From a bacterium (GTDB lineage: Bacteria; Patescibacteriota; Minisyncoccia; UBA6257; MFKM01): a DNA stretch of 64,000 bases. A model generated the notes under the pieces. It saw only the letters and a list, made by a program, of their open reading frames with translations, was not told the origin of the DNA and did not search any database. Both the position numbers and the translations under genes were made by a program. Numbering within the stretch: the first letter of the stretch is position 1; each line of letters starts with the position of its first letter. The DNA lies in the NCBI GenBank assembly GCA_030693325.1, contig JAUYAV010000011.1, forward strand, positions 1,368 through 65,367, given 5' to 3'. Positions 2,221-41,760 of the stretch are shown one piece after another.

Positions 2221-2631
2221 TAGCCGGACAATTTGCCCCCAGACCAATTAAGCATTAATGTCTACCGTAAAAAATAAATGCTCAATCGGTGTGTGGGTAA
2301 AGAAGAAAAGATTGAATCGGAAAGAAATTTAAAAAATTAATATGACCCCCGTGCCAAGTCTTTTTTTTGGCGCGGAATTAAATTAGACAATTTTTTGAGG
2401 TAGAGAATTAATAAGGGTATATGGTGGATGCCTTGACACAAAGTGGCGATGAAGGACGTGGCGTAGCTGCGATAAGCCTCGGTGAGGTGCCTAGCAACCT
2501 TTGACCCGGGGATTTCCGAATAGGGAAACCTATTTGCATAAAATGCAAATGATTCCAAATATAAATTTTGGAATAGCAGACCCGCTGAAGTGAAACATCT
2601 CAGTAAGCGGAGGAACAAAAAAAAGATTTTT

Positions 2632-2662
<31 letters not shown>

Positions 2663-2932
2663 GAGCCTAAATTTGTTAAAATTTTCGCAAGAAGATTTTA
2701 ATGAACGTTGCAAGATGGAAATTTTTCTTAAGTTTTAAAGCTTGAAACTTAAGATAAGAGTTACAAATTTGTTGGCTAGTCGAAACCGTTGGAAAGCGGT
2801 GCCAAAGAGAGTGATAGCCTCGTAGACAAAAGTCGGCAAACTCTTAGTTTTTCATTCTTAAGTACTCCGAGGCCAGACAACCTCGGAGGAATCCAGGAGT
2901 ACTATCTCCTAAGGCTAAATACACTTTGTGAT

Positions 2933-2968
<36 letters not shown>

Positions 2969-4938
2969 ATAGGCCGTTGAGGCCGGTGAAATAGAATCTG
3001 AAACCATATACTTACAAGGACTCGGAGCCTTACAATTTCGCAAGAAATAACGGGTGACGAGGTGCCTATTGAAGAATGAGCCAACGACTTTATTTGCATT
3101 GCAAGTTTAACCTCGCGAAGCGAGGGAAGCGAAGGGAAACCAAGTGTTAATAGCGCTAATAGCAGTGCGAGTAAGACCCGAAGCCAAGCGAGCTTGTCCT
3201 GGTCAGGATGAAGGCCGAAGAAATTCGGCTGGAGGTCCGAACCGGTGAGCCGTTCAACACTCTCGGATGAACTGGGATAAGAAGTGAAAAGCTAATCGAG
3301 CTTGGTAATAGCTGGTTCTCTCCAAAATAGTTTTAGGACTAGCGTCGGATAAATAGATTTCTGGGGGTAGAGCACTGGATGATTTGTAAAGGACGAAAGT
3401 TCGACAAATCAATCAAACTCCGAATACCAGATTTTGTTCTCCGGCAGTCAGACTACGGGGGCTAAGCTCCGTGGTCGCGAGGGAAAAAGCCCTGACCGCC
3501 GTCTAAGGTCCCAAAATGTATGCTAAGTGTTAAAGAAAGTCTCCAACCAGAGACAAATAGGAGGTTGGCTTAGAGGTAGCCATCCTTTAAAGAGTGTGTA
3601 ACAACTCACTATCCGATGGTTGGGGGCGTCTAAAATTTATCGGGGCTAAGCATACTACCGAAGACGCGGATTCGTTTTTTGTTTACAAAAAACGAGTGAT
3701 AGGAGAGCATTTCCAGCCGCTGTGAAGGTTGACCCGCGAGGGCGACTGGAGCGCTGGGAAGAGAGAATGTTGGCATGAGTAATCACAAATCAGATGAGAA
3801 ATCTGATCCCCGAAAATCCAAGGTTTCCTCCGCAACGAAAATCGACGGAGGGTTAGGCGGCCCTAAGGCAATGGCGAAAGCCGCAGCTGAAGGACAGTCG
3901 GTTGATATTCCGACCTGCCCATTAATTATCGATGGAGTGACAAAGAAAATAAAATCGCGCGCCTTAATGGTTTGGCGTCATTAATAATAAGATTGGGCAT
4001 CCAGGAAAATCCGGGTGCAAGCCTTTAGTGGCACCCAATCGTTTATCGAAGTAAGGCTAAGTTTTTACTTGGCTAATGCGATTGAAGAGTCTTTCAAGAA
4101 AACCTTCTAAGAGTTATGTTAATGGGCTCCGTACCGTAAACCGCCACAGGTGGGTGAGGCGAGGAGCCTCAGGGGAACGGGTAATTCTTCGTTAAGGAAC
4201 TCGGCAAAAAAGCAGACGTAAGTTCGCAATATGTCTTGGCTGACGCAAGTCAGCCCGCAGCGAAAGAATCTCTGGCGACTGTTTACCAAAAACACAGCTC
4301 CCTGCTAACTCGTAAGAGGATGTATAGGGGGTGACGCCTGACCGATGCGAGAAGGTTAACGGCGGGAGTGCTCTGACGCAAGTTGGAGTGCCCACTGCCC
4401 GAAGCCCTCGTCAATGTCCGCAGTAACTATAACTGTGTTAAAGTAGCGCAATTCCTTTTCAGGTAAGTTCTGAAGCGCACGAATGGCGTAACGATCGGAG
4501 AACTGTCTCAACGAAGAGCCCGATGAAAATGCGATTCCCGTGAAGACGCGGGGTACTGGCAGTAAGACGAAAAGACCCCGGGAGCTTTACTGCAGCTTGA
4601 TATTGTTTTTAGAACTTTAATGCGTAGTGTAGTGGGTAGGCTTTGAAGTTTCGCTTTCGGGCGGAATGGAGCCGACAATGAAACACCCATCTTTCGAGTT
4701 TTAAAATCTAATCTGAACGGCAAAAACGTTCGGAGACACTGTCTGGCGGGCAGTTTTAATGGGGCGTTATCCTCCTAAAGAGTAACGGAGGAGTTTATTA
4801 AGGTCGGCTTAGCCCGGATGGAAATCGGGCTGGACGCGTAAAGGCAAAAGCCGGCTTAACTGCAAGACTGACAAGTCGCGCAGATGCGAAAGCAGAACTT
4901 AGTGACCCGACGATTCTTTATAGAAAGGTCGGAGACAC

Positions 4939-4969
<31 letters not shown>

Positions 4970-5105
4970 GGTGGAGCCCGAGAGTCCATATCGACGGCTC
5001 CGCTCGGCACCTCGATGTCGGCTCACCCTATCCTGGGACTGAAGAAGGCCCCAAGGGTTTGGCTGTTCGCCAATTAAAAGGGTACGCGAGCTGGGTTCAA
5101 ACCGT

Positions 5106-5424
5106 TGAGTTCATAAACATAATTACGGTAATTGCCGTAATTACAGTAATTACTGTAATTTTTATGAATTGAACGGTTTGAATCCGAGGATTATGACATC
5201 AATCACGGCGGTTATAGAAAGTAATTTCTATATTCCAATAGTTTAATTAATTTAGCTAACTAATATCGGTGGAACCCTAATTGATGATTAGGGCAATACC
5301 GAGGGAATTCTTTATAAATTAAAGAAGCCCGTAGAGACTAAGCGTTAGCCTCCGCCAAAATTTTGTAAAAAAATGGGCGGATGAAGATATAGTCCAATAC
5401 ACTTAGTAATAAGTGACCAATATG
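5106..5424 (+). mobile_element. ORF-less group I intron in 23S rRNA at the I-CreI/I-CeuI-type site (exon CCGU|CGUGAGACAGG, about E. coli 2593-2596)
   Basis: exon homology breaks after gggttcaaaccgt and resumes at cgtgagacaggttggtctctatc; the 3' part has the group I P7/P3 signature ggcggatgaagatatagtcc; intron ends in G and the upstream exon in U. Confidence 0.7.
5121..5160. repeat. tandem array of the 8-bp palindrome GTAATTAC (9-bp period) inside the P1/P2 region of intron 1, embedded in a larger hairpin at 5097..5180
   Basis: aattacggtaattgccgtaattacagtaattactgtaatt; same array at 7511..7550 and 17545..17584. Confidence 0.8.
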
Positions 5425-5487
5425 CGTGAGACAGGTTGGTCTCTATCTACTGTCAGCGATGAATACTTGAGGGAAGTCGACTCTAGT

Positions 5488-6235
5488 AAACAAAATTTGC
5501 TACTTTCCGAAGTAATTCGGATTGAAAATTCGGCTAATAACGGTGAAATCTTACCATTTAATTATTACAATCGGTCTTGTGATAATTTACTTGAGGACCA
5601 AGAAATGCTAAGATAATACCGTGGGAAGTCAATCTAAAATCAACTTAGCTTATATAGCTGGATTTCTTGATGGCGATGGAAGCTTAATGCTTCAAATCAA
5701 AAAACGTAAAGAGGGGAATATATCCAAGAGGCGTTTCATGCTAACGATTTGTTTTTATCAAGATTCGCGCCATGATAAGCCCCTTTTATGGATTAGAAAA
5801 ATTTTGGGAATAGGTTATCTTTCCAAAAGAAAAGACGGAATGTCGGAATTAAGAATCAATGGCTTCCGCCAAACGGAAAAGATAATCAAATCTCTGTCGC
5901 CGTTCATTAAATTCAAGAAAGTCCAAGCTAAAATTCTTTTGGCATCGGCGAAGTTGCTTCAAAAAAGCAAACTAACCGGTAACGAATTAAAGAGATTGGT
6001 TGATAATATTCTGAAAATTCAATCAGAAAATTACACAACTAAAAGAAAGAAAACCAAAAGAGAATTGCTAAAAAATTTAGGTTTGACCCCGTAACGACTG
6101 AATTCCGCCGATTGGCGGATGAAGATAATATCAATTTTGATATTATAATACGCCGGCCCCGCTAAAATTTTATTTTTGTAAAAATTTAGGCGGGTGAAGA
6201 TATAGTCTGCGCACATAGTGATATGTGAATTCGTG
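5488..6235 (+). mobile_element. group I intron in 23S rRNA inserted in the sarcin-ricin loop region (exon CUCUAGU|ACGAGAGGACC), carrying a LAGLIDADG homing endonuclease ORF
   Basis: exon homology lost after ctctagt and regained at acgagaggaccgagttgaacg; 3' region has ggcgggtgaagatatagtctg (P7/P3-like); intron ends in G. Confidence 0.7.
5621..6094 (+). CDS. LAGLIDADG homing endonuclease (single-motif, I-CreI-like), intron-encoded, GTG start
   Basis: LAYIAGFLDGDGSL motif; lies wholly within intron 2. Confidence 0.8.
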   Translation: MGSQSKINLAYIAGFLDGDGSLMLQIKKRKEGNISKRRFMLTICFYQDSRHDKPLLWIRKILGIGYLSKRKDGMSELRINGFRQTEKIIKSLSPFIKFKKVQAKILLASAKLLQKSKLTGNELKRLVDNILKIQSENYTTKRKKTKRELLKNLGLTP

Positions 6236-6586
6236 ACGAGAGGACCGAGTTGAACGAACCTCTGGTCTACCGGCTTCAGCACCTGCTGAACCGCCGGGTA
6301 GCTATGTTCGGCCGGGATAAGCGTTGAAAGCATCTAAACGCGAAGCCCCTCCCAAGATTAAGTATCACTAAATAATTTATTATTTAGGTGGTCCCCAGAA
6401 GATTACTGGGTTGATAGGCCTTAGGTGTAAGCTCCGTAAGGAGTTCAGCCGAGAGGTACTAATAGACCATCTATTCTCTACCTCAAAAAGTTGTCTAAAA
6501 TCGTGCTTCACTATTGTTCGGCATAAATCGGCTTTATCAGCATTTATCAGCGTCAGTGGCGAGCGATAGCGAGGCACGAAAATATT

Positions 6587-6696
6587 CCTCGGTGATACAG
6601 TTTATGGTGTCCTACCCGTTCCCATTCCGAACACGGAAGTAAAAGCCATAAACGCCAATGATAGTCCTTCGGGGCGAAAGTAGGCTTTGCCGGGGA
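6587..6696 (+). rRNA. rrf: 5S rRNA
   Basis: CCCGTTCCCATTCCGAACACGGAAGT...GTAGG conserved core; terminal helix cctcgg/ccgggg; followed by a T-run. Confidence 0.8.
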
Positions 6697-6738
6697 TTTT
6701 TATTTTAATATTTTAGTATTTAGTTGTAATATTTATAT

Positions 6739-7521
6739 ATGACCCCTCGCTTGGTTAAACAACTGCTTTACGGCGCTTTCTATTTTTTAATAATATTTAT
6801 TATTTTTTGGCTGATTTATATTTTATTTTTGAAACCCGCGCCCACTTGTTCCGATGGACATCGGAATCAAAACGAAATCGGCATTGATTGTGGCGGATTT
6901 TGTCCGTCCTGTGAATTAACCCAATTGAAAAATTTGGCGGGTGATTGGGCTTTAGTTTTGCCGGCTGGAGAAAACGGGATAACGCTGTTGGCTGAGATTA
7001 CTAATCCCAATTTGAATTTCGGGGCTGAAAGTTTTTCTTACCAATTCAAAATCATCGGCCCTTTCGGCTTACTGAAAACCGTTGGAGGTCAGTCATCTAT
7101 TTACAGCGGCGAAATAAAATATTTAATAGCAACCGCCGTTCCGGTTAATCCTCAAGACGCAAAACGGGTGGAACTGGAAATATCTGCCTCCAGTACTGTT
7201 TGGCAATCGCAGGAAAAAATGCCCAAACCTGATTTAGCGAATCCCTCTCATCAAACAGTAATTTCAAACGGAAGCGTAATAGTGAAAGGTATTATTAGAA
7301 ATAAAAGTCCTCTTTTAATATCTCAAACAAAAATCATAGCCCTTATTTATAATTTTGATGGAAGCCAAATCCTAAACGCGTCTTACACAACCTTAGCTGG
7401 CCTCAAAGGGGATGAACAGCGGGCCTTTTCCATTGGATTCCCGAAAGGCGATTGGACCAAAAAAATAGATACAAACAGAACCAAGATTTTTATTGAACCC
7501 CAAATTACCAAATTACAGTAA
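6739..7521 (+). CDS. hypothetical membrane-anchored protein with a Cys-rich segment
   Basis: 260 aa ORF; N-terminal TM FYFLIIFIIFWLIYILFL; CSDG...CGGFCPSC. Confidence 0.5.
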   Translation: MTPRLVKQLLYGAFYFLIIFIIFWLIYILFLKPAPTCSDGHRNQNEIGIDCGGFCPSCELTQLKNLAGDWALVLPAGENGITLLAEITNPNLNFGAESFSYQFKIIGPFGLLKTVGGQSSIYSGEIKYLIATAVPVNPQDAKRVELEISASSTVWQSQEKMPKPDLANPSHQTVISNGSVIVKGIIRNKSPLLISQTKIIALIYNFDGSQILNASYTTLAGLKGDEQRAFSIGFPKGDWTKKIDTNRTKIFIEPQITKLQ

Positions 7522-7550
7522 TTACAGTAATTGCCGTAATTACGGTAATT
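7511..7550. repeat. GTAATTAC tandem palindrome array overlapping the TAA stop of the upstream gene
   Basis: aattacagtaattacagtaattgccgtaattacggtaatt. Confidence 0.8.
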
Positions 7551-7558
7551 AAATTTTT

Positions 7559-8623
7559 ATGTTTAAGAAACTTGATTGGTGGCTTATCGGCGCTTTGATT
7601 TTTATGGCCGCGGCCAGTTTAATATCGCTTTCGTCTACCAAACCGGCGCTTTTTCAAATCCAACTTATTTGGTACGCATTGAGCTTTTTGATTATTTTTT
7701 TTGCGGCAAAAATTAACTGGCGTTGGCTTATAACCCAAAATTGGTTTTTGCTGTCTTTCTATTGGCTGACGATCATTTTATTGATTGCCGCCTTTTTTTT
7801 CAGGCCTATCCGAGGCGCCCAAAGCTGGTTGATAATCGGAAATTTCCAGTTTCAGCCATCGGAATTGGCAAAAATTTCCCTGATTCTTATTTTCGCCAGT
7901 TTTTTCTCGCGCCGTTATCTTGAAGTTTCATTGATTAAAAACATAGCCGCTTCATTTTTTTATTTTTTTATTCCGGCGGCGCTGGTAGCGCTTCAACCGG
8001 CTTTGGGTATGGCTATAATTTTTTTCGGTATTTGGTTCAGTTTTTTGATAGTAAGCGGCTTGAAATGGCAGAGGATTTTCGCCAGTTTTTTAATTTTTAT
8101 TTTGGTATTTTCTTTTCTTTGGATGACTTTTCTGAGGCCCTACCAGAAAGAAAGGGTTTTGGGATTTATCTTTCCGGACCGGAATCCTTTGGGAACGAAT
8201 TATAATGTCATTCAGTCAAAAATCGCCATCGGTTCGGCGGGATTATTCGGAAAAGGCTTCCAGCAGGGGACGCAAAGCCGGCTGGGTTTTCTGCCTGAAG
8301 CCCAAACCGATTTTATTTTTTCCGCTTTCGTGGAAGAATGGGGATTGGTCGGCGGCCTTCTTTTGATTGCCGCTTTTTTGCTGATTATTTTCAGAATAAT
8401 TAAAATTGGCATCAAATCGGAAGGCAACTGCGCCAAATTTATTTGTTTGGGCGCCGCTATCGCCCTCGGTTCGCAATTTTTCTTTAATATCGGTTCTTGT
8501 CTGGGGCTTTCACCGGTGGTGGGGATAACTTTTCCTTTTTTCAGTTACGGAGGATCTAGCTTATTGACTAACGCTTTGCTCATCGGTATAATACAAAATA
8601 TTGCAATTGAATCCTCGTTTTAA
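7559..8623 (+). CDS. SEDS-family peptidoglycan glycosyltransferase (RodA/FtsW)
   Basis: 10-TM ORF with SEDS motifs QPSELAKISLIL, LPEAQTDFIFS, FSYGGSS. Confidence 0.85.
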   Translation: MFKKLDWWLIGALIFMAAASLISLSSTKPALFQIQLIWYALSFLIIFFAAKINWRWLITQNWFLLSFYWLTIILLIAAFFFRPIRGAQSWLIIGNFQFQPSELAKISLILIFASFFSRRYLEVSLIKNIAASFFYFFIPAALVALQPALGMAIIFFGIWFSFLIVSGLKWQRIFASFLIFILVFSFLWMTFLRPYQKERVLGFIFPDRNPLGTNYNVIQSKIAIGSAGLFGKGFQQGTQSRLGFLPEAQTDFIFSAFVEEWGLVGGLLLIAAFLLIIFRIIKIGIKSEGNCAKFICLGAAIALGSQFFFNIGSCLGLSPVVGITFPFFSYGGSSLLTNALLIGIIQNIAIESSF

Positions 8624-9653
8624 CAAAAGGGTGAGTTTTATTTTGGTTGGCGGAATAATACTGGCAGCAGTCCTGATTTTGTTTTCTGTTTTTTATTTTA
8701 ACGGGTTGAAGCCGATAGGTTCGGATATAAAATTTGAATTGAAAATTGAAAAAGGGCAGGGATTGAAAGAAATTTCCGCCGCTCTTTCTCAAGCCCGGAT
8801 AATCCGCTCAATAACTGTTTTTAAACTTTACGCTATTTTTACGGGCAAAGCCCGGCATTTGAAATCAGGCATTTATCAATTGAACGGCCGCTTGAGCGTT
8901 CCGGAAATAATTAATTTTTTGATTGATGATTCAAGCCAAGAAGTTTCCATCACTATCACTGAAGGCTCAACTCTTAAAGAAATAGACCGGATTTTGAGTT
9001 CGGCAAATATTATCCCAAAAAATTCATTAGTTAGTTTTTATTTTCCCGTCCATGGCGGGTCCGCCGCAGGCGGAAAAAATGACGAACTAATAAAAGCTTA
9101 TCCTTTCTTGGAAGGTATTGACAATTTAGAGGGTTTCCTTTATCCTGATACTTATCGTTTCAAAATTGACTCTTCAGTCGAAGAGGCAGCTAAAAAATTT
9201 TTTGATAATTTTCAGAACAAAGCTTGGCCGTTAATAAGCCAAAAAAATAATTGGTATCAAATTTTGATTTTAGCTTCTATTTTAGAGAAAGAAGTTCCGG
9301 TTTTTAACGATCAGCAACTGGTGGCGGGGATTCTCAATAAGCGGATAAAAGTGGGAATGCCTATCCAAGTTGACGCGACTGTTCTTTATACTAAATGCCA
9401 AGGGGATTTTTATTCCTGTTCTCAGCGTAAGTTATCAACGGGCGATTTGAAATTGGATTCGCCTTATAACACTTATTTGAATTTAGGCTTGCCGCCGACA
9501 CCCATTGCCAATCCTGGTCAGATGGCGATACAGGCCGCTTTAAGTCCTAAGGCTTCAAATTATTGGTTTTATCTTTCAGATTCCCAAACGAAAGAAACGA
9601 TTTTTTCCGAAACTCTGGAAGATCAAAACAAAAATCGTCAAAAATATCTATAA
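8601..9653 (+). CDS. mltG: endolytic murein transglycosylase MltG (YceG family), paralog 1
   Basis: N-terminal TM; YPDTYRF; VDATVLYT; NTYLNLGLPPTPIANPG. Confidence 0.85.
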   Translation: MQLNPRFNKRVSFILVGGIILAAVLILFSVFYFNGLKPIGSDIKFELKIEKGQGLKEISAALSQARIIRSITVFKLYAIFTGKARHLKSGIYQLNGRLSVPEIINFLIDDSSQEVSITITEGSTLKEIDRILSSANIIPKNSLVSFYFPVHGGSAAGGKNDELIKAYPFLEGIDNLEGFLYPDTYRFKIDSSVEEAAKKFFDNFQNKAWPLISQKNNWYQILILASILEKEVPVFNDQQLVAGILNKRIKVGMPIQVDATVLYTKCQGDFYSCSQRKLSTGDLKLDSPYNTYLNLGLPPTPIANPGQMAIQAALSPKASNYWFYLSDSQTKETIFSETLEDQNKNRQKYL

Positions 9654-9670
9654 AATTATTTAAGATTAAG

Positions 9671-12600
9671 ATGAATTCTTTAACAAAGAAAAATTTCTCT
9701 TCTTATCAAAAACCGTTTATTGAGGAGTCAAATCTAATAGAAATTCAAACTAAATCCTATAAGTGGCTTTTAACCGCCGGCTTAAAAGACCTTTTTGAAG
9801 AATTTTTTCCGATTAAGGACCGAACCGGAAAAGAACTGGAACTTCATTTTCTTGATTTTGATTTTGACGAACCCAAATATGATGAAATTCAAGCTCAGAA
9901 CAAAGAGCAAAGCTACGAAGCCACTCTCCGGGTTAAATTAAAATTAGTAAACAATCTCTCTAAAACCAGCAATACCCAAAAAATTTATTTCGGCGATTTC
10001 CCGATGATGACCGAGCGGGGAACGTTTATTATCAACGGCGTGGAAAGAGTGGTGATTTCCCAGTTAATCAGATCCGCCGGCGTTTATTTCTCGGCCGATA
10101 TTTTCCGGGGACGGAAATTTTTCGGCGCCAAAGTGATTCCTAATAGGGGCGCGTGGCTTGAAATAGAATCCGAACCCAACGGTTTCATCGGCGTAAAAAT
10201 AGACCGGAAAAGAAAAGTTCCGATTACCTGTCTTTTGAGAATTTTTGCCGCGGTTGCCGATAAAAAGAAATCGCTTACCAATGAAGAAATTCTTAAAATT
10301 TTCGGCAAAGCGATTGAACCGACTCTCCTGAAAGATACCGCCTCCAATGATGACGAATCTTTCGTGGAAATTTATAAAAGATTGCGTCCCGGCGATTTAG
10401 CTACGGCTGACAATGCCCGTTCTTTAATCCAGCCGATGTTTTCGCGATTTGACCGTTATGATATTTCTCCGGTTGGCCGTTTTAAAATTAATCAGCGGTT
10501 GGATCTTAAAAAAGAATCGCGACAACTTGATTTGGAAGATCTGATAGCAATTATCAAAGAAATTGTAAAACTTAATAACGAACCGATGGCCGAAGCCGAT
10601 GATATTGACCACCTCGGTAATCGCCGCGTGAGAGCGGTGGGAGAATTGGTTCAGAACAGATTGCGGGTCGGGTTCGCCAGAATGCGCAGGGTTATTCAGG
10701 ACAGGATGTCAACCTTAAACGCTATGGAAATATCAATGCCGACACAGTTGATTAATCCCAAAATTTTGATAGCGGTGGTAAAGGAATTCTTTATGCTTTC
10801 CCAGTTTTCTCAGTTTATGAACCAAGAAAATTTCTTGGCCGAACTTGAGCATAAGCGTTTGCTTTCGGTTTTGGGTCCCGGCGGATTGACTCGCGAGCGG
10901 GCCGGATTTGAAGTCCGCGATGTTCATCGTTCTTACTACGGACGTATTTGCCCGATTCAAACTCCCGAAGGAGCTAATATTGGATTGGTCAATCACTTAG
11001 CCAATCTCAGCCGGGTGAATGAATTCGGTTTCCTGGAGGCGCCATATTATAAAGTTAAAAATGGGATAGTCGGTTTGGAAGTGATCTGGCTTGACGCTTT
11101 TGAGGAAGAAAAATATAACATCGCTCACGCCGCCATTGATATTGATAAAAAAGGAAAAATTTTAGAATCCACGGTTGAAGCGAGAATTAAAGGCGAGCCG
11201 GCCACTTGTTTAAGAGAAGAACTTGATTTTATTGATGCCGCTCCGCATCAGGTTTTTTCCCCGGCCGCTTCCTTGATTCCTTTTATTGAACACGATGACG
11301 CCAACCGGGCGTTAATGGGTTCAAACATGCAACGACAAGCCGTTCCGCTGATTAAACCGGAAGCTCCGTTAGTAGGCACCGGGCTGGAAGGAAAAATCGC
11401 CGAGAATTCCCACCAAGTGATTACCGCTCCGGCTGACGGAGAAATTACCGTCGTTGACGCTAAACATATTGAGCTGAAAACTGCCGCGGGAACAAAAAAA
11501 TATGATTTGATTAAATTCAAACGGTCCAATCAATCAACCTGCATCTCTCAATATCCGGTTATCAAAAAAGGACAAAAAATAAAGAAAGGGGATTTTTTAA
11601 CCAGCGCCTCTTCAATAGACAATGGCCAGTTGGCATTAGGGCAGAATCTTTTAGTGGCTTTCACTCCGTGGGAAGGAGCCAATTTTGAAGATGCGGTTAT
11701 TCTTTCGGAGAGAGTAGTGAATGATGACCGTTTCACGTCCATACATATTGAAGATCACTACTGTGACGTCCGCGAAACCAAACTTGGCCCGGAAATTACT
11801 ACTCCTGATATTCCCAATGTATCCGAAGATAAATTAAGAAACCTTGATGAAGAGGGAACTGTTAGAATTGGAACCGAAGTTAACCCGGATGATATTTTGG
11901 TGGGAAAAATTTCTCCAAAAGGGGAATCTGAATTAACCTCCGAAGAACGTTTATTGAGGGCTATTTTTGGCGAAGAAGCCCGCGATGTTAAAGACACTTC
12001 TCTGGTAATGCCTCACGGAGAACAAGGGCGGGTTATTGGCATAAAAATTTCTTCCCGTGAAAAAGGAGACCAACTTGACCCGGGCGTCATAAAAAGAATC
12101 CAAATCCAGGTAGCCCAGTTAAGCAATATCCAGGTCGGCGATAAATTGACGGGCCGCCACGGAAATAAAGGCGTCATTTCTCAAATCAGACCGGTTGAAG
12201 ACATGCCTTATCTTGAAGATGGAACGCCGGTTGACGTGATTCTTAATCCTTTGGGCGTTGCTTCCCGGATGAATATCGGCCAAATTTTGGAAACCCATTT
12301 GGGTTTTGCCGCCAAAAAATTAGGATATCAGGCGGTTACTCCGATTTTCACCGGCGCTTCTGAAGACCAAATAAGAGAAGAACTCAAGAAAGCCGGTCTG
12401 CCGGAAGACGGAAAAGTAAAAATTTTTGACGGCCGGACCGGTGAAGCTTTCCGTAATCCGATAACGGTCGGCTACATATATGTAATGAAGCTTAACCACT
12501 TGGTTAAAGATAAAATTCACATGCGGTCTACCGGCCCCTACTCTCTTATCACTCAACAGCCCTTGGGCGGCAAAGCGCGTCTTGGCGGCCAGCGTTTCGG

Positions 12601-15600
12601 AGAAATGGAAGTCTGGGCCCTTGAAGGGTACGGCGCCAGTCATACGCTTCAGGAAATGCTTACTATTAAATCCGATGACGTAATGGGCCGTTCTTCAACT
12701 TTTGAATCCATAATCAAAGGAGAAAAAATCAAAAAACCCAGTTTACCGGCTTCCTTCAATGTTTTGGTAAGTGAAATTAAAAGCTTGGGATTGGACGTGG
12801 AAATAATAAAATCCAACGACCAAAAAGACAGGTTGGAAAAAGACCTTAAAGATATTCAGGCTATTTCCATAAAATTGGCCTCGCCGGAAAAAATTATTTC
12901 TTGGTCTTCAGGAGAAGTCACTAAAGCCGAAACCATCAACTACCGCACCCAACGACCCGAAAAAGACGGATTATTTTCCGAGAGAATTTTCGGACCGACC
13001 AAGGACTGGGAATGTTATTGCGGCAAATATAAAAAAATCCGTTACAAAGGCGTGGTCTGCGACAAGTGCGGCGTTGAAGTCACTCGCTCAATAGTCAGAC
13101 GCGAACGGATGGGGCACATTAATTTAGCCGCTCCGGTTGTTCATATTTGGTTTCTGAAAAGCGTCCCTTCAAGATTAAGTTTGATTCTTGACGCGCCCCT
13201 GCCGAAACTGGAAAAAGTCATTTATTACGCCTCCTATATTGTCACGGCTATTAATAAAGACAGCAAAGATTATGAATTTAAAAAGAAAGAACTGCTTGCC
13301 GAAAATATCAAACCAGGGACAATTTTGAACGAGAACGAATATCTTGATTTAAGCGAACGTTTTGAAAAAACCTTGGAAATTAAATCCGGCGCCGAGGCGA
13401 TTCGGAAAATTTTAGAGAACTTAGACCTTAAAACTCTGGTTCATCAGCTGGAAAAAGAACTAGAAGAGACCAAAGACGCCAATCGCCAAATACGAATTTT
13501 AAAACGGCTCAATTTGGTAAAATCCATGATAAAATCCGGCATCAGACCCGAATGGATGATTATGAATGTCTTGCCGGTTTTGCCTCCCGATTTAAGGCCG
13601 ATGGTCGCTTTAGACGGCGGTCGTTTCGCCACTTCCGACCTTAACGATCTTTATCGGAGAGTTATTAATCGCAATAATCGTTTGAAGAAACTGCTTGAAT
13701 TGAAAGCGCCGGAAGTGATTGTCACTAACGAAAAGCGAATGTTGCAGGAAGCCGTTGACGCTTTAATAGACAACGCCAGTTCCATCGGCGCCCAACAACT
13801 TTCCGCTCAGCGCCGTCCATTAAAATCCCTGGCTGATATGCTCCGGGGCAAACAGGGCCGTTTCCGCCAAAATCTTTTGGGCAAACGGGTTGATTATTCC
13901 GGCCGCTCCGTAATTGTCGTCGGCCCCGAATTAAAACTTGGCGAATGCGGTTTGCCTAAAAAAATGGCCTTGGAACTTTTTCGTCCTTTTATTATCCATA
14001 AAGTTATTGAACGCAGTTTGGCTCATAATATTAAAAACGCCAATAAATTTATTGACCAGGGTTCGGACGAGGTCTGGGCGATTTTAGAAGAAGTCATCGC
14101 GGACAAAAAAGTACTGCTTAACCGGGCGCCGACTCTCCACCGTTTGAGCATCCAGGCCTTTAAACCGATTCTTGTGGAAGGATTGGCTATTAAAATTCCG
14201 CCGCTGGTTTGCGCGGCTTTTAATGCCGACTTTGACGGCGACCAAATGGCCGTCCATCTGCCGCTTTCCGAAGAAGCTCAATATGAAGCCAGAGAACTCA
14301 TACTCTCTACGGTTAATCTCTTGAAACCGGCTTCAGGCCACCCGGTCGTCAGTCCTACTCAGGATATCGTCTTGGGCTGTTATTTCCTTACCAAACTCCA
14401 GCCGGAAGCGAAGGGAAAAAATTCAATCTTTTCAAGCTTTGCCGAAGCCACTTTGGCTTATGAGCGCGGTTTTCTTGACCTTAACGCGCCGATTAAAATC
14501 GCCCTTCCGAAAAGAAGCAAAAAACTCATAGATACAACTTATGGCCGTTTAATCTTCAATAATCAGCTTCCGAAAAATTTTGATTTTATCAACGAACTGC
14601 TCAATAAAACCGCTCTCTCAAAAATCAGTTCCTTGATTATAGAAAAAGTGGGCATCAATCAAGCCGCCGTTTATTTGGACAACATTAAAAATATCGGCTT
14701 TGAATACGCCACCATTTCCGGAATTACCTGGGGAATGGACGATTTGAAAATACCGGAACAAAAACCTCAAATCATTGAAAAAGCGGAAAAAGAAGTAGCC
14801 ACGGTCAATGACGAATTCCGCCAGGGATTATTAACTAACGAAGAAAGAAAAAATCAGGTTATTATTATTTGGGATAAAACCAATAAAGAAATCGCCAGTC
14901 TTGTTCCTAAAACATTCCATCCCGACAATCCTGTCTTTATTATTTTAGATTCCAAAGCCCGCGGCGGCTGGGCGCAAACGGCCCAGATGACCGGCATGAA
15001 AGGATTGGTTATCAACCCGAGTGGAGAAGTCATTGAATTGCCCGTTAAATCATCTTATAAAGAAGGATTGGACATTTTAGAATACTTTATTTCCATTCAC
15101 GGCGCCCGCAAAGGCCAGGCCGACACCGCGCTCAGAACGGCAGAAGCCGGATATTTGACCCGCCGTTTGATTGATGTAGCCCAGGACGTAATAATCCAGG
15201 AGGAGGATTGCCAAACAGAAGAAGGAATTGAAATTTTCAGAAAAGAAGGGGACGAATACGGTTATCATTTTGCCGAGCGGCTTTATTCGCGAACGGCTTT
15301 GGAAAATATAAAAATTAAAAGCAAAATTATCGTGAAAGCCGGTGAAGTTATCGGCCGCGAAGCCGCCGAGCTTATTGATAAATCAAAAGTGGAATCAGCT
15401 AAGGTCCGCTCGCCGATTACCTGTAAAACTCTTTACGGAATTTGTTCGCGCTGTTACGGCTTGGATTTAGGAACTAACCAGCCGATAAAACTGGGAGAAG
15501 CTGTCGGGATTATCGCCGCTCAATCAATCGGCGAGCCCGGAACTCAGCTTACTTTGAGAACCTTCCATTCCGGCGGCGTGGCCGGGATTGATATCACCCA

Positions 15601-16363
15601 CGGTTTGCCGCGGGTAGAAGAGGTTTTTGAAGCCCGTTCGCCTCGCGGGAAAGCCATCCTGGCCGAAACTGATGGCGTTGTTGAATCCATTAAAGAAGAT
15701 AATTCAATAAAAATCGTAAAAATAAAAAGTTCGGCTTCAAAAGGCAAAAAAGCCAAATATTTTGAATATACGATTCCTCGGACGACCATCCTTTTGGTAA
15801 AAACCAATGACAAAATCGTTAAGGGCCAGCAAGTCAGCGAAGGTTCAATTAATTTAAAAGAGCTTTTAATCGCCCAAAATAGCCGAGAAGTGGAGCGCTA
15901 TATCGTCAACGAAATTCAAAAAATTTATGTCCCCGAAGGAACTATTATCAATGACAAGCATATTGAAATAATCATCCGCCAAATGTTTTCTCGGGTAACA
16001 ATTAAAGAAGAAGGAGATACTAATTTTGTCATCGGCGATGTCATTGAAAAATCAAAATTCTTGGAAGTTAACCGGCAAACCAAAAAACTCAAAGGCGAAC
16101 CGGCAAAAGCCCAGCTTATTTTGATGGGCATCACCCAGGTCAGCTTAACCACTGAAAGTTTCCTCTCGGCGGCTTCTTTCCAGGAAACTTCTCGCGTCTT
16201 GGTAGGGGCGGCCATCAGCGGCAAGGTTGATAAACTCCGCGGCCTTAAAGAAAACGTGATTATCGGCCGCTTGATTCCGGCTGGCATCGGCTGGCGGGGA
16301 ATACCCGTGGAAGCCGTCAGCGACGAAGAAGAAAATAAAGAGATTGAAGAAGGCAACAAATAA
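9671..16363 (+). CDS. rpoBC: fused DNA-directed RNA polymerase beta-beta' (rpoB-rpoC) in one uninterrupted reading frame; junction near nt 12850
   Basis: RpoB motifs ([15 protein letters not shown], rif region [18 protein letters not shown]) run without a stop into RpoC motifs ([28 protein letters not shown]); ATG at 9671 begins [11 protein letters not shown]. Confidence 0.9.
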
Positions 16364-16365
16364 GT

Positions 16366-16393
16366 TTGACTTTGGGAAAAAGTTTGATATTCT
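16366..16393 (+). promoter_or_regulatory. weak candidate promoter for rpsF-ssb-rpsR (-35 TTGACT, about 16-nt spacer, -10 TATTCT)
   Basis: read by eye; weak -10. Confidence 0.25.
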
Positions 16394-16446
16394 AATGATG
16401 AAAGTGGATAAGCGCTAATAAATATCCGCATAAATCAGCGTACTTT

Positions 16447-16872
16447 ATGGAAGAAATTGAAAAAAGAAAATACGAGATTGGTTTCGTGATAAAAACCGAA
16501 GACGCGGCGATTATCTCTCAATCCTTGAAAAACAGGGGATTTGTTGTTTTGGCTGAAAATCCTTTAGAAAAGATTCAGCTGGCTTATCTCATAAAAAAAG
16601 AAAGTTACGCTTATTTCAGTTATTCCCATTTTGAAGGCGATCCGGCCGCTATTAAAGAGTTGAAAGAAGATCTTAAGCTCAACCCGGAAGTTCTGCGTTA
16701 TTTGATAATCACTCCGCCTTTCATAAAAAAACTCGCCTGGAGAAACCCCGCGTTTTCCGAAACATCCGGAGAAATGAAATTCACTCCGCCTGTCGCTAAA
16801 CGAAGTCCGGCTATTGAATCAATCTTAACCAATGAAGCGTTGGAAAAGAAAATTGAAGAAATATTAAAATAA
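16447..16872 (+). CDS. rpsF: 30S ribosomal protein S6 with C-terminal extension
   Basis: YEIGFVIKTED...LAYLIKK; conserved rpsF-ssb-rpsR order. Confidence 0.85.
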   Translation: MEEIEKRKYEIGFVIKTEDAAIISQSLKNRGFVVLAENPLEKIQLAYLIKKESYAYFSYSHFEGDPAAIKELKEDLKLNPEVLRYLIITPPFIKKLAWRNPAFSETSGEMKFTPPVAKRSPAIESILTNEALEKKIEEILK

Positions 16873-16876
16873 AAAT

Positions 16877-17335
16877 ATGAATTTAAACAAAGTATTTCTT
16901 ATCGGTAATTTAACCAGGAACCCGGAACTTAGAGCTCTGCCTTCAGGCGCGGCAGTTGCTTCTTTCGGGATAGCCACTAATCGGATTTGGAAAAATCAGC
17001 AAGGCGAACGGCAGGAAGATGTGCAGTTTCATAATGTTGTTGTTTTCGGCCGTCAAGCTGAAATCGTGAACCAATATTTAACAAAAGGAAGCTTGGCGTT
17101 GATTGAGGGCCGGATTCAAACCAGCTCATGGGACGGAAAAGATGGAACTAAGCAATACAAAACGGAAATCGTGGCAGAAAGAGTCCAGTTTGGTCCGCGA
17201 AGCGCCGCAAAACAGGAAGGATTTGTTAAAAATGAAACACCAAAAGTCGTGAATCAAAATCCGCCAATTCGCGAAGAATTGCCGGAAATTAATATTGACG
17301 AAGGCGAAATAAGACCGGAAGATTTACCATTTTAA
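16877..17335 (+). CDS. ssb: single-stranded DNA-binding protein
   Basis: OB-fold motif NKVFLIGNLTRNPELR; acidic C-terminal tail ending DLPF. Confidence 0.9.
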   Translation: MNLNKVFLIGNLTRNPELRALPSGAAVASFGIATNRIWKNQQGERQEDVQFHNVVVFGRQAEIVNQYLTKGSLALIEGRIQTSSWDGKDGTKQYKTEIVAERVQFGPRSAAKQEGFVKNETPKVVNQNPPIREELPEINIDEGEIRPEDLPF

Positions 17336-17339
17336 AATT

Positions 17340-17546
17340 ATGAATAAGAAACAGTGTTTTTTTTGTTCCCAAAATTTAAAAGACGTTGATTATAAAGAGA
17401 TTGAATTACTCCGGCGTTTTGTGTCCGGCCAAAGCAAAATCATTGACCCGCGATATTCCGGCATCTGCGCCAAACACCAGAGAAAACTGGCGCAAGCGAT
17501 AAAAAGAGCCCGGTATTTAGGATTATTGCCGTTTGTTTCAAGATAA
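17340..17546 (+). CDS. rpsR: 30S ribosomal protein S18
   Basis: CFFC...DYKEIELLRRFVSGQSKI...RKLAQAIKRARYLGLLPF. Confidence 0.9.
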   Translation: MNKKQCFFCSQNLKDVDYKEIELLRRFVSGQSKIIDPRYSGICAKHQRKLAQAIKRARYLGLLPFVSR

Positions 17547-17584
17547 TTACAGTAATTACTGTAATTACCGTAATTACGGTAATT
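17545..17584. repeat. GTAATTAC tandem palindrome array overlapping the rpsR TAA stop
   Basis: aattacagtaattactgtaattaccgtaattacggtaatt. Confidence 0.8.
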
Positions 17585-17593
17585 GAATAAAAA

Positions 17594-18124
17594 ATGTCTT
17601 TCGATTTTTATATTTTTCAAGCTTTCCATAATTTAGCCAATAAGTCTAATTTTTTTGATGGGCTGATTGTTTTTTTGGCCGGCTACCTCCAGTATGTTTT
17701 ATTAGCTTTGGCGATTTTTCTGTTGCTTGCGAAAATAAAAGATTGGCGCCATCAGCTTTATATCGTTTCGGTTTTTCTACTTTCGGCTATTATCAGCCGG
17801 GGATTGATTACGGAAATTATCCGATTTTTCTATCACCGATTAAGGCCATTTTTGGCTCTCAATCTTACGCCCCTAGTCAAAGATTTCAGCGGCTCTTTCC
17901 CTTCCGGCCATATGACTTTGTATTTCGCTCTGGCTTTAACTATTTTTTTGATAAGCCGAAAATGGACCTGGTTTTTTGTCGCCAGCGTTATTTTGATGGG
18001 CCTGGCAAGAATCGCCGCCGGCGTTCACTGGCCTTCGGATATTATAGGCGGAATTCTAATTGCTATTATCAGTTATTTTATTGTCAAAAAAATTCTTCCC
18101 TCAAACAATAAAACCGCCAATTAA
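17594..18124 (+). CDS. PAP2-family membrane phosphatase (undecaprenyl-diphosphatase or PgpB-like)
   Basis: PAP2 motifs RLRP, PSGH, ARIAAGVHWPSD. Confidence 0.8.
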   Translation: MSFDFYIFQAFHNLANKSNFFDGLIVFLAGYLQYVLLALAIFLLLAKIKDWRHQLYIVSVFLLSAIISRGLITEIIRFFYHRLRPFLALNLTPLVKDFSGSFPSGHMTLYFALALTIFLISRKWTWFFVASVILMGLARIAAGVHWPSDIIGGILIAIISYFIVKKILPSNNKTAN

Positions 18125-18142
18125 GCGGTTTTATTTTTCTTG

Positions 18143-18226
18143 TGCCCGAGGAGAGAGTCGAACTCTCACGACCTAAACGGTCAATGGATTTTGAGTCCAT
18201 CGCGTCTGCCATTCCGCCACCCGGGC
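18143..18226 (-). tRNA. tRNA-Leu (anticodon CAA), long variable arm
   Basis: hand-folded cloverleaf: acceptor gcccggg/ctcgggc, anticodon loop cuCAAaa, T-loop ttcgact. Confidence 0.75.
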
Positions 18227-18278
18227 TCCTTTTTAATTATAACGCATAAATTTTAACAGCCAACTCGCGAAATTCATA

Positions 18279-18423
18279 GCCAAACCAAACTTGTCTGAGA
18301 AAATATCCCGCAGGCACTGAAAGATTGGTTTCGCCGTAGGCGAATTTCAGCGCCGAGGGAAAAGAAAATTTTGCCGCTGGAGCAAAATTATTCTGGTTTT
18401 CGAAGGCAAGTTTGGTTTGGCTA
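18279..18423 (+). repeat. copy A of a ~145-bp structured repeat family (16-bp terminal inverted repeat AGCCAAACCAAACTTG, conserved cores, variable internal hairpin)
   Basis: direct comparison with copies at 20663..20801, 43333..43476 and 57606..57748. Confidence 0.85.
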
Positions 18424-18489
18424 AAACTAAAATCAATTCGGAAATGTATATTGATAATGCCATAATTTTTAGCTATAGTAAAGAAGAAT

Positions 18490-19299
18490 ATGGCCCGCGT
18501 TATTGCAATCTGTAATCAAAAAGGGGGAGTCGGAAAAACAACCACGGCGATGAACTTGGGCGCTTATTTAGCCGCTTTGGGACGGCGCTGTCTTTTGGTT
18601 GATTTTGACCCCCAAGCCAACGCCACTTCCGGTTTGGGGATAACGCCGCCACAAGAGTCAGTTTACACCGCTTTGATGAGCGGTCTAATCCCCAGCCATT
18701 TGATCAGAAGAACCGCCATTTTCGGCTACGAAGTTCTGCCGGCTTCCCAGGATTTAGCCGGCGCTTTGGTGGAATTAATTTCTTTGCCCGAGCGGGAATA
18801 TCAGTTAAGAAAAACTATCAATCAACTCCGGCATTTATACGATTTTATATTAATTGACTTGCCGCCCTCGCTTAATCTTCTGACTGTTAACGGGTTGATA
18901 GCCGCCGATGAAGTTTTGATGCCGATTCAATGCGAATATTACAGTTTGGAGGGGATAGGCCAGCTTTTAAAAACTATTGACCTTATTCGCGAAAATCTCG
19001 GCTATAAATTAAACGTGGCGGGTGCGGTTTTAACGATGTATAATAAAAAAGAACGGCTTTCTCGGGAAGTGGTTAAAGAAGTTAGAAGACATTTTCCTTA
19101 TCATGTTTTTAACTCTGAAATACCCCGAGCAGTCGCTTTGGCCGAAGCCCCAAGTTTCGGCAAACCCATTATTCTTTACGCTCCTAACACCCAAGCGGCT
19201 CGGGCTTATCTGCTTTTAACCAAAGAAATCATCAGCCAACAAGAGAAAGGCGCAAATAGTCAATTCGCTAATCAAGTTTTTGGTAACCTAATAACATAA
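18490..19299 (+). CDS. parA: ParA/Soj chromosome-partitioning ATPase
   Basis: deviant Walker A KGGVGKTT. Confidence 0.9.
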   Translation: MARVIAICNQKGGVGKTTTAMNLGAYLAALGRRCLLVDFDPQANATSGLGITPPQESVYTALMSGLIPSHLIRRTAIFGYEVLPASQDLAGALVELISLPEREYQLRKTINQLRHLYDFILIDLPPSLNLLTVNGLIAADEVLMPIQCEYYSLEGIGQLLKTIDLIRENLGYKLNVAGAVLTMYNKKERLSREVVKEVRRHFPYHVFNSEIPRAVALAEAPSFGKPIILYAPNTQAARAYLLLTKEIISQQEKGANSQFANQVFGNLIT

Positions 19300-41564: not shown

Positions 41565-41760
41565 TAAATATGAGACCTAACCCGTAGGGGCAACCTACGG
41601 CAGGGTTATAAAAACCAGTAACGGATAAAAAGCTCCTAGTCAGAGCTCCGTTACTGGTCATATGGGGAAACCCGTATGGGGGTCGCAAGACCTCGCTGGC
41701 TGGGAGCTTTGTGTTTTCATAAAGCTAAAATGTCGAACCCAGCTAGCGTTAGTTTCTTTA
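41565..41760 (+). ncRNA. GC-rich structured leader or candidate cis-regulatory RNA upstream of a secreted-protein gene
   Basis: stack of hairpins in AT-rich surroundings: cgtagg-GGCAA-cctacg (GNRA loop), accagtaacgga...tccgttactggt, ggtc-GCAA-gacc, repeated cccgtaNgggg; identity unknown. Confidence 0.3.

Follow-up and report, generated by a model that had tools for sequence, protein, structure and literature searches.

A fused rpoB-rpoC gene for a predicted single-chain β-β′ RNA polymerase subunit in a Paceibacteria genome

RESULTS

The window analyzed here is a stretch of 64,000 nucleotides from a member of the Patescibacteriota (contig JAUYAV010000011.1 of assembly GCA_030693325.1, positions 1,368 to 65,367 of the forward strand), and our subject is a gene within it in which rpoB and rpoC, which encode the β and β′ subunits of RNA polymerase, are joined into one reading frame (rpoBC). 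The first-pass annotation of this DNA had described a frame of 2,230 codons with no stop between the RpoB and the RpoC homology, and both the open reading frame (ORF) listing of the window and the profile matches bear this out. The ORF extends on the plus strand from 9563 to 16363, and its first ATG, at 9671, gives a protein of 2,230 amino acids followed by a stop codon (Table 1). The RpoB profile PRK00405 aligns from its position 3 to position 1095 (of 1096) with residues 6 to 1046 of this protein, at 1,463 bits against a cut-off of 896, and the RpoC profile TIGR02386 aligns from position 2 to position 1142 (of 1147) with residues 1065 to 2208, at 1,605 bits against a cut-off of 963.5. The β half passes both bacterial RpoB equivalogs (NF001616, 1,463 against 896 bits; TIGR02013, 1,451 against 801 bits). 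Along the chain the Pfam domains are ordered as Rpb2 domains 1, 2, 3, 45, 6, and 7 and then Rpb1 domains 1 to 5, with none missing. The catalytic motifs are intact, and GRHGNKG, GEMEVW, the Zn-ribbon, and NADFDGD are each found once in the window. Both halves had been remarked upon as short. They are (about 1,050 and 1,175 amino acids), yet this is ordinary for the group, since the separate subunits of relatives are equally short, with 1,045 to 1,090 amino acids for RpoB and 1,194 to 1,231 for RpoC.

The junction, first placed near nucleotide 12850, lies close to that position, at nucleotides 12809 to 12835. The β homology stops at residue 1046 (...SLGLDVEII), and in an alignment to solved β′ chains residue 3 of the Bacillus subtilis β′ subunit (6wvj_D) pairs with residue 1058. 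Only about 8 to 9 residues, KSNDQKDR-L, lie outside both conserved cores. The tether KSNDQKDR is hydrophilic, has no equivalent in conserved β or β′, and differs in length among close relatives. There is no TAA, TAG, or TGA in the frame of the junction, so the fusion is independent of the genetic code that is assumed; the remaining two frames are full of stops.

By chance alone, it would not be unlikely for 18 spacer codons to stay open and in the right frame (about 0.33 for the absence of a stop, estimated from the base composition, times 1/3 for the frame), and the case for a real fusion therefore rests on replication. A Logan contig of 11.8 kb (run SRR13727537) corresponds to window positions 6671 to 18310, with 0 mismatches over 11,640 nucleotides that include the junction, which means that the junction was rebuilt by an independent assembler. 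The same fused gene was called on that contig, and the exact protein is recorded there. Five related clusters (P0001, P0002, P0003, P0004, and P0278; 80 to 94% identity), which come from different samples in ENA, JGI, and NCBI, are all fused, P0278 being cut by the end of its contig, and P0001, from a different sample, has the gene order of the window. The distance between a motif in β and ETINYRT in β′ is 115 amino acids in the window protein and 119, 114, 107, and 115 amino acids in P0001, P0002, P0003, and P0004, respectively. As these linker lengths differ and all of them are in frame, several independent indels must have kept the reading frame. A junction of the type seen in the window is also present on a 585-kb metagenome contig (L089). 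The fusion had been proposed to be natural rather than an artefact, and the identical independent assembly and the in-frame conservation of variable linkers among relatives agree with this.

The nearest unfused relatives with the same gene neighborhood are L083, L084 (Paceibacterota GCA_036444215), L085, L086 (Jorgensenbacteria GCA_030648515), and L087 (Brennerbacteria GCA_016187205). In these Jorgensenbacteria/Brennerbacteria-like relatives the synteny is that of the window, but rpoB has its stop, and rpoC either uses another frame or follows after 4 to 8 nucleotides; the gaps between rpoB and rpoC are -14, +5, +8, +4, and -8 nucleotides, respectively, and the relative frames vary. A comparison of rpoB and rpoC in related genomes had been suggested; the close relatives are fused, and these nearest unfused relatives keep separate genes. 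When an unfused β tail (for example, NVEIIEKEKK and a stop) and an unfused β′ head (for example, MNFDAIKL-KIASP or MENLNFESLLL-KIASP) are joined, they are collinear with the fused linkers. In L084, NVEIIEKEKK with its stop and the following MNFDAIKL are collinear with the fused counterpart in P0003 and equal to it in length. Relatives with separate genes begin β′ with ME(N/D)... at the position of Leu1055 of the window protein. At this old rpoC start position the window has a TTG codon (Leu1055), P0002 has Met (MEKDLKDIQ), P0001 has Ile (IERDLKDIR), and in P0003 the position is lost, while a fused protein from another lineage, P0006, keeps Met there (MEQAGDITSIGIKL). The TTG at 12833 looks like a relic start codon.

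A search with the full-length protein yielded 120 clusters, all of them fused, whereas a search with the β half yielded almost only separate RpoB proteins of 1,045 to 1,090 amino acids at 67 to 72% identity, with the source names Brennerbacteria, Jorgensenbacteria, Pacebacteria, and Parcubacteria. The word-index protein search that was used seems to favor matches similar in length to the query, and neither list can be read as a census. Taken alone, the full-length search would suggest a uniformly fused clade, but this reading is rejected because the identities of the separate RpoB proteins in the β-only search were as high or higher. Judged from these sequences, both the fused and the separate state are common among Paceibacteria. 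Most of the fused clusters (114; P0007 to P0120 and L002) form a main fused clade, for which the names, where given, are Candidatus Liptonbacteria, Ryanbacteria, Paceibacterota, and Minisyncoccia. Its members belong to the same class as the window genome, share the architecture of the window protein, and have about 2,240 to 2,290 amino acids. Their junction is highly uniform (...NIxPxYxxxxxRKDxFxALKI...), with a motif spacing of 110 amino acids against 115 in the window protein, whose linker is unrelated. Of the 118 fused relatives whose spacing was determined, 98 have exactly 110 amino acids, and nearly all of these 98 are from the main fused clade. The fused Paceibacteria sequences are public, and they are mostly annotated as "subunit beta′" or "hypothetical protein." One of them, P0114 (NCBI; 2,310 amino acids, on a 384-kb contig), is labeled "Anaplasmataceae bacterium," although it shares 61% identity with the window protein and lies inside the fused Paceibacteria clade. 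This label is probably wrong, and perhaps the fused RpoBC had drawn Wolbachia as the best named match.

Among the GTDB genome loci in the matches listed, 78 of 79 have separate genes, Saccharibacteria, Zambryskiibacteria, and Nomurabacteria loci included. The scans of GTDB genomes and metagenome contigs are samples from the listed matches, and the genome sample is biased to loci in which the two genes share a frame. From the separate genes at 78 of these 79 loci it follows that the fusion is not a Patescibacteria-wide trait, and most of the CPR (Candidate Phyla Radiation) lineages sampled have separate genes. Apart from this, in the loci of the same biased sample (L001 to L080) rpoB and rpoC are often in the same frame and split by a single stop in many unrelated bacteria. 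In L001, L003, L004, and L008 the frame reopens right after a lone rpoB stop, so that one point mutation would fuse the genes.

Outside this group, an exhaustive HMMER search of 1.84 billion representatives of 50% identity clusters with a junction-centered query of 1,191 amino acids recovered the fused Paceibacteria as one representative (P0077) and about 30 other representatives, from outside Paceibacteria, with β and β′ in one chain. The one-chain proteins from outside Paceibacteria (P0121 to P0156, P0250, and P0251) have 2,030 to 2,860 amino acids; the P0135 cluster has 21 members, and several such clusters are backed by many contigs. Named examples are WP_014849752 of Mycoplasma wenyonii ("Multifunctional fusion protein" in UniRef) and proteins of two metagenome-assembled genomes (MAGs), MBQ6520178 of an Anaerolineaceae MAG and MDR1577725 of a Deltaproteobacteria MAG. 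Representatives such as these likewise have β and β′ in one chain, but they are only 35 to 57% identical, are much longer (2,400 to 2,860 amino acids), and belong to unrelated lineages. Some of the one-chain proteins outside Paceibacteria may depend on the genetic code used in gene calling. Even so qualified, natural β-β′ fusions seem to be spread more widely among known sequences than the two or three textbook examples would suggest.

Two trees were built to place the fused lineages. In a neighbor-joining tree of β (372 sequences, 1,039 columns, 100 replicates), the main fused clade (114 clusters) has a bootstrap value of 100, the window group has 100 (99 when P0009 is included), and the clade that includes all of these has 100. 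In none of the 100 replicates did the main fused clade and the window group form a unit free of unfused lineages. The window group thus lies outside the main fused, Liptonbacteria/Ryanbacteria-type clade, with unfused lineages between them. In a tree of concatenated β and β′ (59 sequences, 2,237 columns, 200 bootstraps), the main fused clade has a value of 100 and its sister clade 96. This sister clade holds L084 and L087 (both separate), fused P0006 with separate L086 (100), fused P0005 with separate L085 (58), and fused P0009 with the window group (100). Among the four fused lineages, the linkers show no relation in either length or sequence. The interleaving of fused and unfused lineages in the trees and the unrelated linkers suggest about four independent fusions in this part of Paceibacteria. 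Accordingly worded, the claim of a fusion in this genome stands as far as its reality is concerned, while the fusion is neither peculiar to this genome nor shared by all Patescibacteria and seemingly arose repeatedly.

The genes around rpoBC are arranged in the order FtsW/RodA, YceG/MltG, rpoB(C), S6, SSB, and S18 (window positions 7559 to 17546), an order that is kept in fused and unfused relatives (loci L081 to L088). The window rpoBC is therefore found outside the classical rplKAJL-rpoBC-rpsLG setting. A promoter/terminator scan of positions 6500 to 18500 gave values at background (32 sites where 22.4 ± 5.7 were expected, and 21 where the expectation was 18.2 ± 4.7). Elsewhere in the window, the 23S rRNA gene (2401 to 6470) contains, close to its 3′ end, an insertion of some 1.1 to 1.2 kb, after which the large-subunit match resumes and ends at 6470. 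The insertion is made up of a group I intron with an ORF for a LAGLIDADG homing endonuclease inside it. Such rRNA insertions are a known CPR trait. A 5S rRNA gene and a LOOT RNA are listed in Table 1 as well.

Table 1. Features of the fused rpoBC gene, its neighbors, and other elements, in window coordinates
Feature	Position (nucleotides)	Strand	Basis or remark
rpoB-rpoC (rpoBC) fused ORF	9671-16363	+	2,230 codons; TAA/TAG/TGA-class stop at 16361-16363
β (RpoB) module, residues 1-1046, complete	9671-12808	+	NCBIfam PRK00405, Pfam Rpb2 domains
β motif GRHGNKG	12152-12172	+	Motif scan
Tether KSNDQKDR, residues 1047-1054, putative former β C-terminal tail	12809-12832	+	Comparison with relatives
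In-frame TTG (Leu1055), putative site of ancestral rpoC start	12833-12835	+	Alignment to separate-gene relatives
β′ (RpoC) module, residues 1055-2230, complete	12833-16360	+	TIGR02386, Pfam Rpb1 domains 1-5
β′ Zn-ribbon	13013-13072	+	Motif scan
β′ catalytic NADFDGD	14222-14242	+	Motif scan
ftsW/rodA	7559-8623	+	Upstream neighbor, synteny
yceG/mltG	about 8607-9653	+	Upstream neighbor, synteny
rpsF	16447-16872	+	Downstream neighbor, synteny
ssb	16877-17335	+	Downstream neighbor, synteny
rpsR	17340-17546	+	Downstream neighbor, synteny
Group I intron core	5190-5416		Rfam RF00028, 77.9 bits
LAGLIDADG homing-endonuclease ORF inside 23S insertion	5621-6094		Pfam PF00961, E = 3.5e-10
5S rRNA	6587-6696		
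LOOT RNA	41574-41694	+	Full-length match to Rfam RF03000, 92 bits against a gathering score of 46.4

DISCUSSION

In assembled RNA polymerase, the C terminus of β adjoins the N terminus of β′. The product of the window gene is very probably a single chain of about 250 kDa in which these two ends are tethered through the old β tail of about 8 residues. How such a gene could come about is suggested by its relatives. The ancestor would have had rpoB and rpoC abutting or overlapping, as they do in the nearest unfused relatives (-14 to +8 nucleotides), and this abutting arrangement would make a fusion likely here. Loss of the rpoB stop together with a frame-restoring indel of a few nucleotides would then have joined the genes. 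Nothing would have been inserted, and the linker would simply be the old β tail followed by the old β′ head. The comparison with relatives speaks strongly for this origin, since the linkers are collinear with tail plus head and a relic Met persists at the old rpoC start in some of the fused proteins.

The fused protein is most likely a working tethered β-β′. Fusions of this kind have been engineered before: as PMC3993855 reports, citing Severinov et al. (1997), β-β′ fusions support the growth of Escherichia coli and leave the transcription properties unchanged, and in the same paper a linker of 10 amino acids (LARHVGGSGA) resulted in active recombinant Mycobacterium bovis RNA polymerase. In both of these constructs the C terminus of β is connected to the N terminus of β′ via about 10 residues, as in the window gene, the difference being that their linker is designed whereas here a natural β tail would serve as the linker. 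As the engineered fusions with a 10-residue linker are active, a tether of about 9 residues should be long enough. For H. pylori, whose subunits are naturally fused, the title of Raudonikiene et al. (1999), as cited in PMC12718164, describes viability when they are split. The fused chain would fold with α2 and σ into a normal core enzyme in which a 1:1 stoichiometry of β and β′ is guaranteed. The change was probably nearly neutral rather than the source of a new function, and a polymerase specialist would not be very surprised by it, since such fusions are known to be tolerated.

Natural fusions have been described for only a few lineages. According to the passages of PMC9696931 and PMC1557499 that cite Zakharova et al. 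(1998, 1999), β and β′ are naturally fused in Helicobacter pylori, Helicobacter felis, and Wolinella, and the list in PMC7483510, which cites Lane and Darst (2010), has Helicobacteraceae and Wolbachia as fused. It had been suggested that the window gene represents the type of fusion seen in Helicobacter and Wolbachia, and as far as the architecture described in these three papers goes, it matches. RpoBC of Helicobacter and Wolinella is also encoded by one ORF with β and then β′ end to end, is conserved across its clade, and serves as a rare genomic change that marks this clade. It has about 2,890 amino acids, compared with 2,230 for the window protein, lies in a different neighborhood, and is of independent origin. 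Wolbachia RpoBC has an equal architecture and also comes from a bacterium with a reduced genome, but it belongs to a separate lineage and represents a separate event. The window protein is about 600 amino acids shorter than the RpoBC of either group. It scores 2,293 bits against the cut-off of 5,372 for the Helicobacter-type equivalog (NF007172/PRK09603) and 2,096 bits against the cut-off of 4,632 for the Wolbachia-type equivalog (NF011417/PRK14844), which, despite the shared architecture, indicates that it is not an orthologous fusion. Full-text literature searches, which did not cover most subscription journals, found no report of an rpoBC fusion in CPR, Patescibacteria, or Parcubacteria, and the first-pass remark that no description of the feature in such genomes was known is in line with this. 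In the PDB we found no natural fused chain either; the best chain had about 1,280 bits, and none of those listed was longer than about 1,600 amino acids.

If fused and unfused lineages are so closely interleaved, they could also descend from a single ancient fusion at the base of the main fused clade and the Jorgensenbacteria/Brennerbacteria-like group, followed by several re-splits. All fused lineages are indeed inside one clade with 100% support, the internal branches among the unfused lineages are short (the "127 clade" has a bootstrap value of only 11%), the paired β and β′ sequences are few, and the difference between four fusions and one fusion plus four fissions is a small margin. However, a re-split demands a new stop, a new start, and a new ribosome-binding site simultaneously, and the 119 unfused clusters sit on many separate branches, so that many fissions would be required. 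In addition, none of the four fused lineages has a linker related to that of another, every linker looks like a β tail joined to a β′ head, and two of the lineages have the relic Met. By the trees and linkers at hand, an ancient fusion with at least four re-splits is less parsimonious and mechanistically harder than about four fusions, and we regard it as unlikely.

It may also be asked whether repeated fusion in Paceibacteria reflects adaptive convergence rather than a series of neutral events. Where cells are ultra-small, contain very few polymerase molecules, and have less help with assembly, a tether could secure the 1:1 stoichiometry and the cotranslational assembly of the core. If this were true, the protein of 2,230 amino acids would be the smallest natural single-chain catalytic core of a bacterial RNA polymerase. 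We offer this view as speculation and doubt that it is correct.

The fused gene could still give rise to two subunits if translation also began inside the ORF, at the in-frame TTG at 12833, or if a protease cut the tether. This TTG is start-capable and lies exactly at the ancestral rpoC start, P0002 and P0006 keep an ATG there, and the hydrophilic tether is probably exposed. Against this, there is no Shine-Dalgarno-like sequence at a workable distance in the 20 nucleotides upstream (ccaacgaccaaaaagacagg), where an AGG directly abuts the TTG, and the codon is not conserved: P0001 has Ile at the old start, P0003 lacks the position altogether, and no start-like residue is seen at this site in the main fused clade. 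Internal initiation is unlikely because a ribosome-binding site at a workable distance is missing and the codon varies. For the natural counterpart in H. pylori, the title of Zakharova et al. (1998), as cited in PMC9696931, describes tethered subunits. Taken over both of its routes, the production of two subunits seems very improbable for the window gene, and we retain the single tethered chain.

An assembly or sequencing error, in the form of a lost stop or an indel at the junction, could also have falsely merged two genes. The genes of unfused relatives are divided by no more than a stop and a few nucleotides, so that a single error could imitate a fusion, and one related contig with a stop at the junction (L082) might seem to favor this reading. 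It is effectively refuted by the sequence comparisons, namely, the identical DNA in the contig of an independent assembler, the five fused clusters from other samples and sources with four linker lengths that are all in frame, the fused gene of L089, and more than 110 additional fused clusters in the sister clade.

Some points nevertheless weigh against a natural fusion that arose about four times and yields one chain. In L082 (ENA ERZ27254836 k141_1972231, protein P0279), a TAA closes rpoB where the linker would lie, and this TAA is the last codon of the contig. Compared with the P0001 gene, there are 3 mismatches over 3,032 nucleotides and then 56 in the final 124 nucleotides. This divergent tip of 124 nucleotides is shorter than the assembler k of 141, while the upstream 3 kb is 3.4% divergent from P0001. 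P0279 thus resembles the product of a close relative with split genes, but the DNA comparison points to a mosaic contig tip, and L082 has low weight for us, although it may be a real strain variant with split genes. Furthermore, the continuity of the junction is read from assembled contigs, and the single-chain product is predicted from the gene sequence. An AlphaFold2 model of a junction fragment of 322 amino acids (13 sequences) had a mean pLDDT (predicted local distance difference test) of 38.5 and is unusable for the geometry of the linker. Finally, the trees are neighbor-joining only, and the sampling of unfused β′ is thin.

Natural β-β′ fusions have been discussed in the literature for few lineages, Helicobacter/Wolinella and Wolbachia, and the window gene and its relatives extend this list by one that is well supported and apparently unreported. 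The fusion appears to recur where rpoB and rpoC adjoin, and its intermediates can be traced in the form of overlapping genes, a relic start codon, and linkers made of tail plus head. There are also practical consequences. Annotation and the quality control of MAGs are affected, as rpoB and rpoC each count as a single-copy marker of their own, and a catalytic core this compact, with about 2,230 amino acids in one chain, could suit recombinant and structural work on CPR transcription. Within Paceibacteria, the fusion is usable as a rare genomic change to sort lineages.

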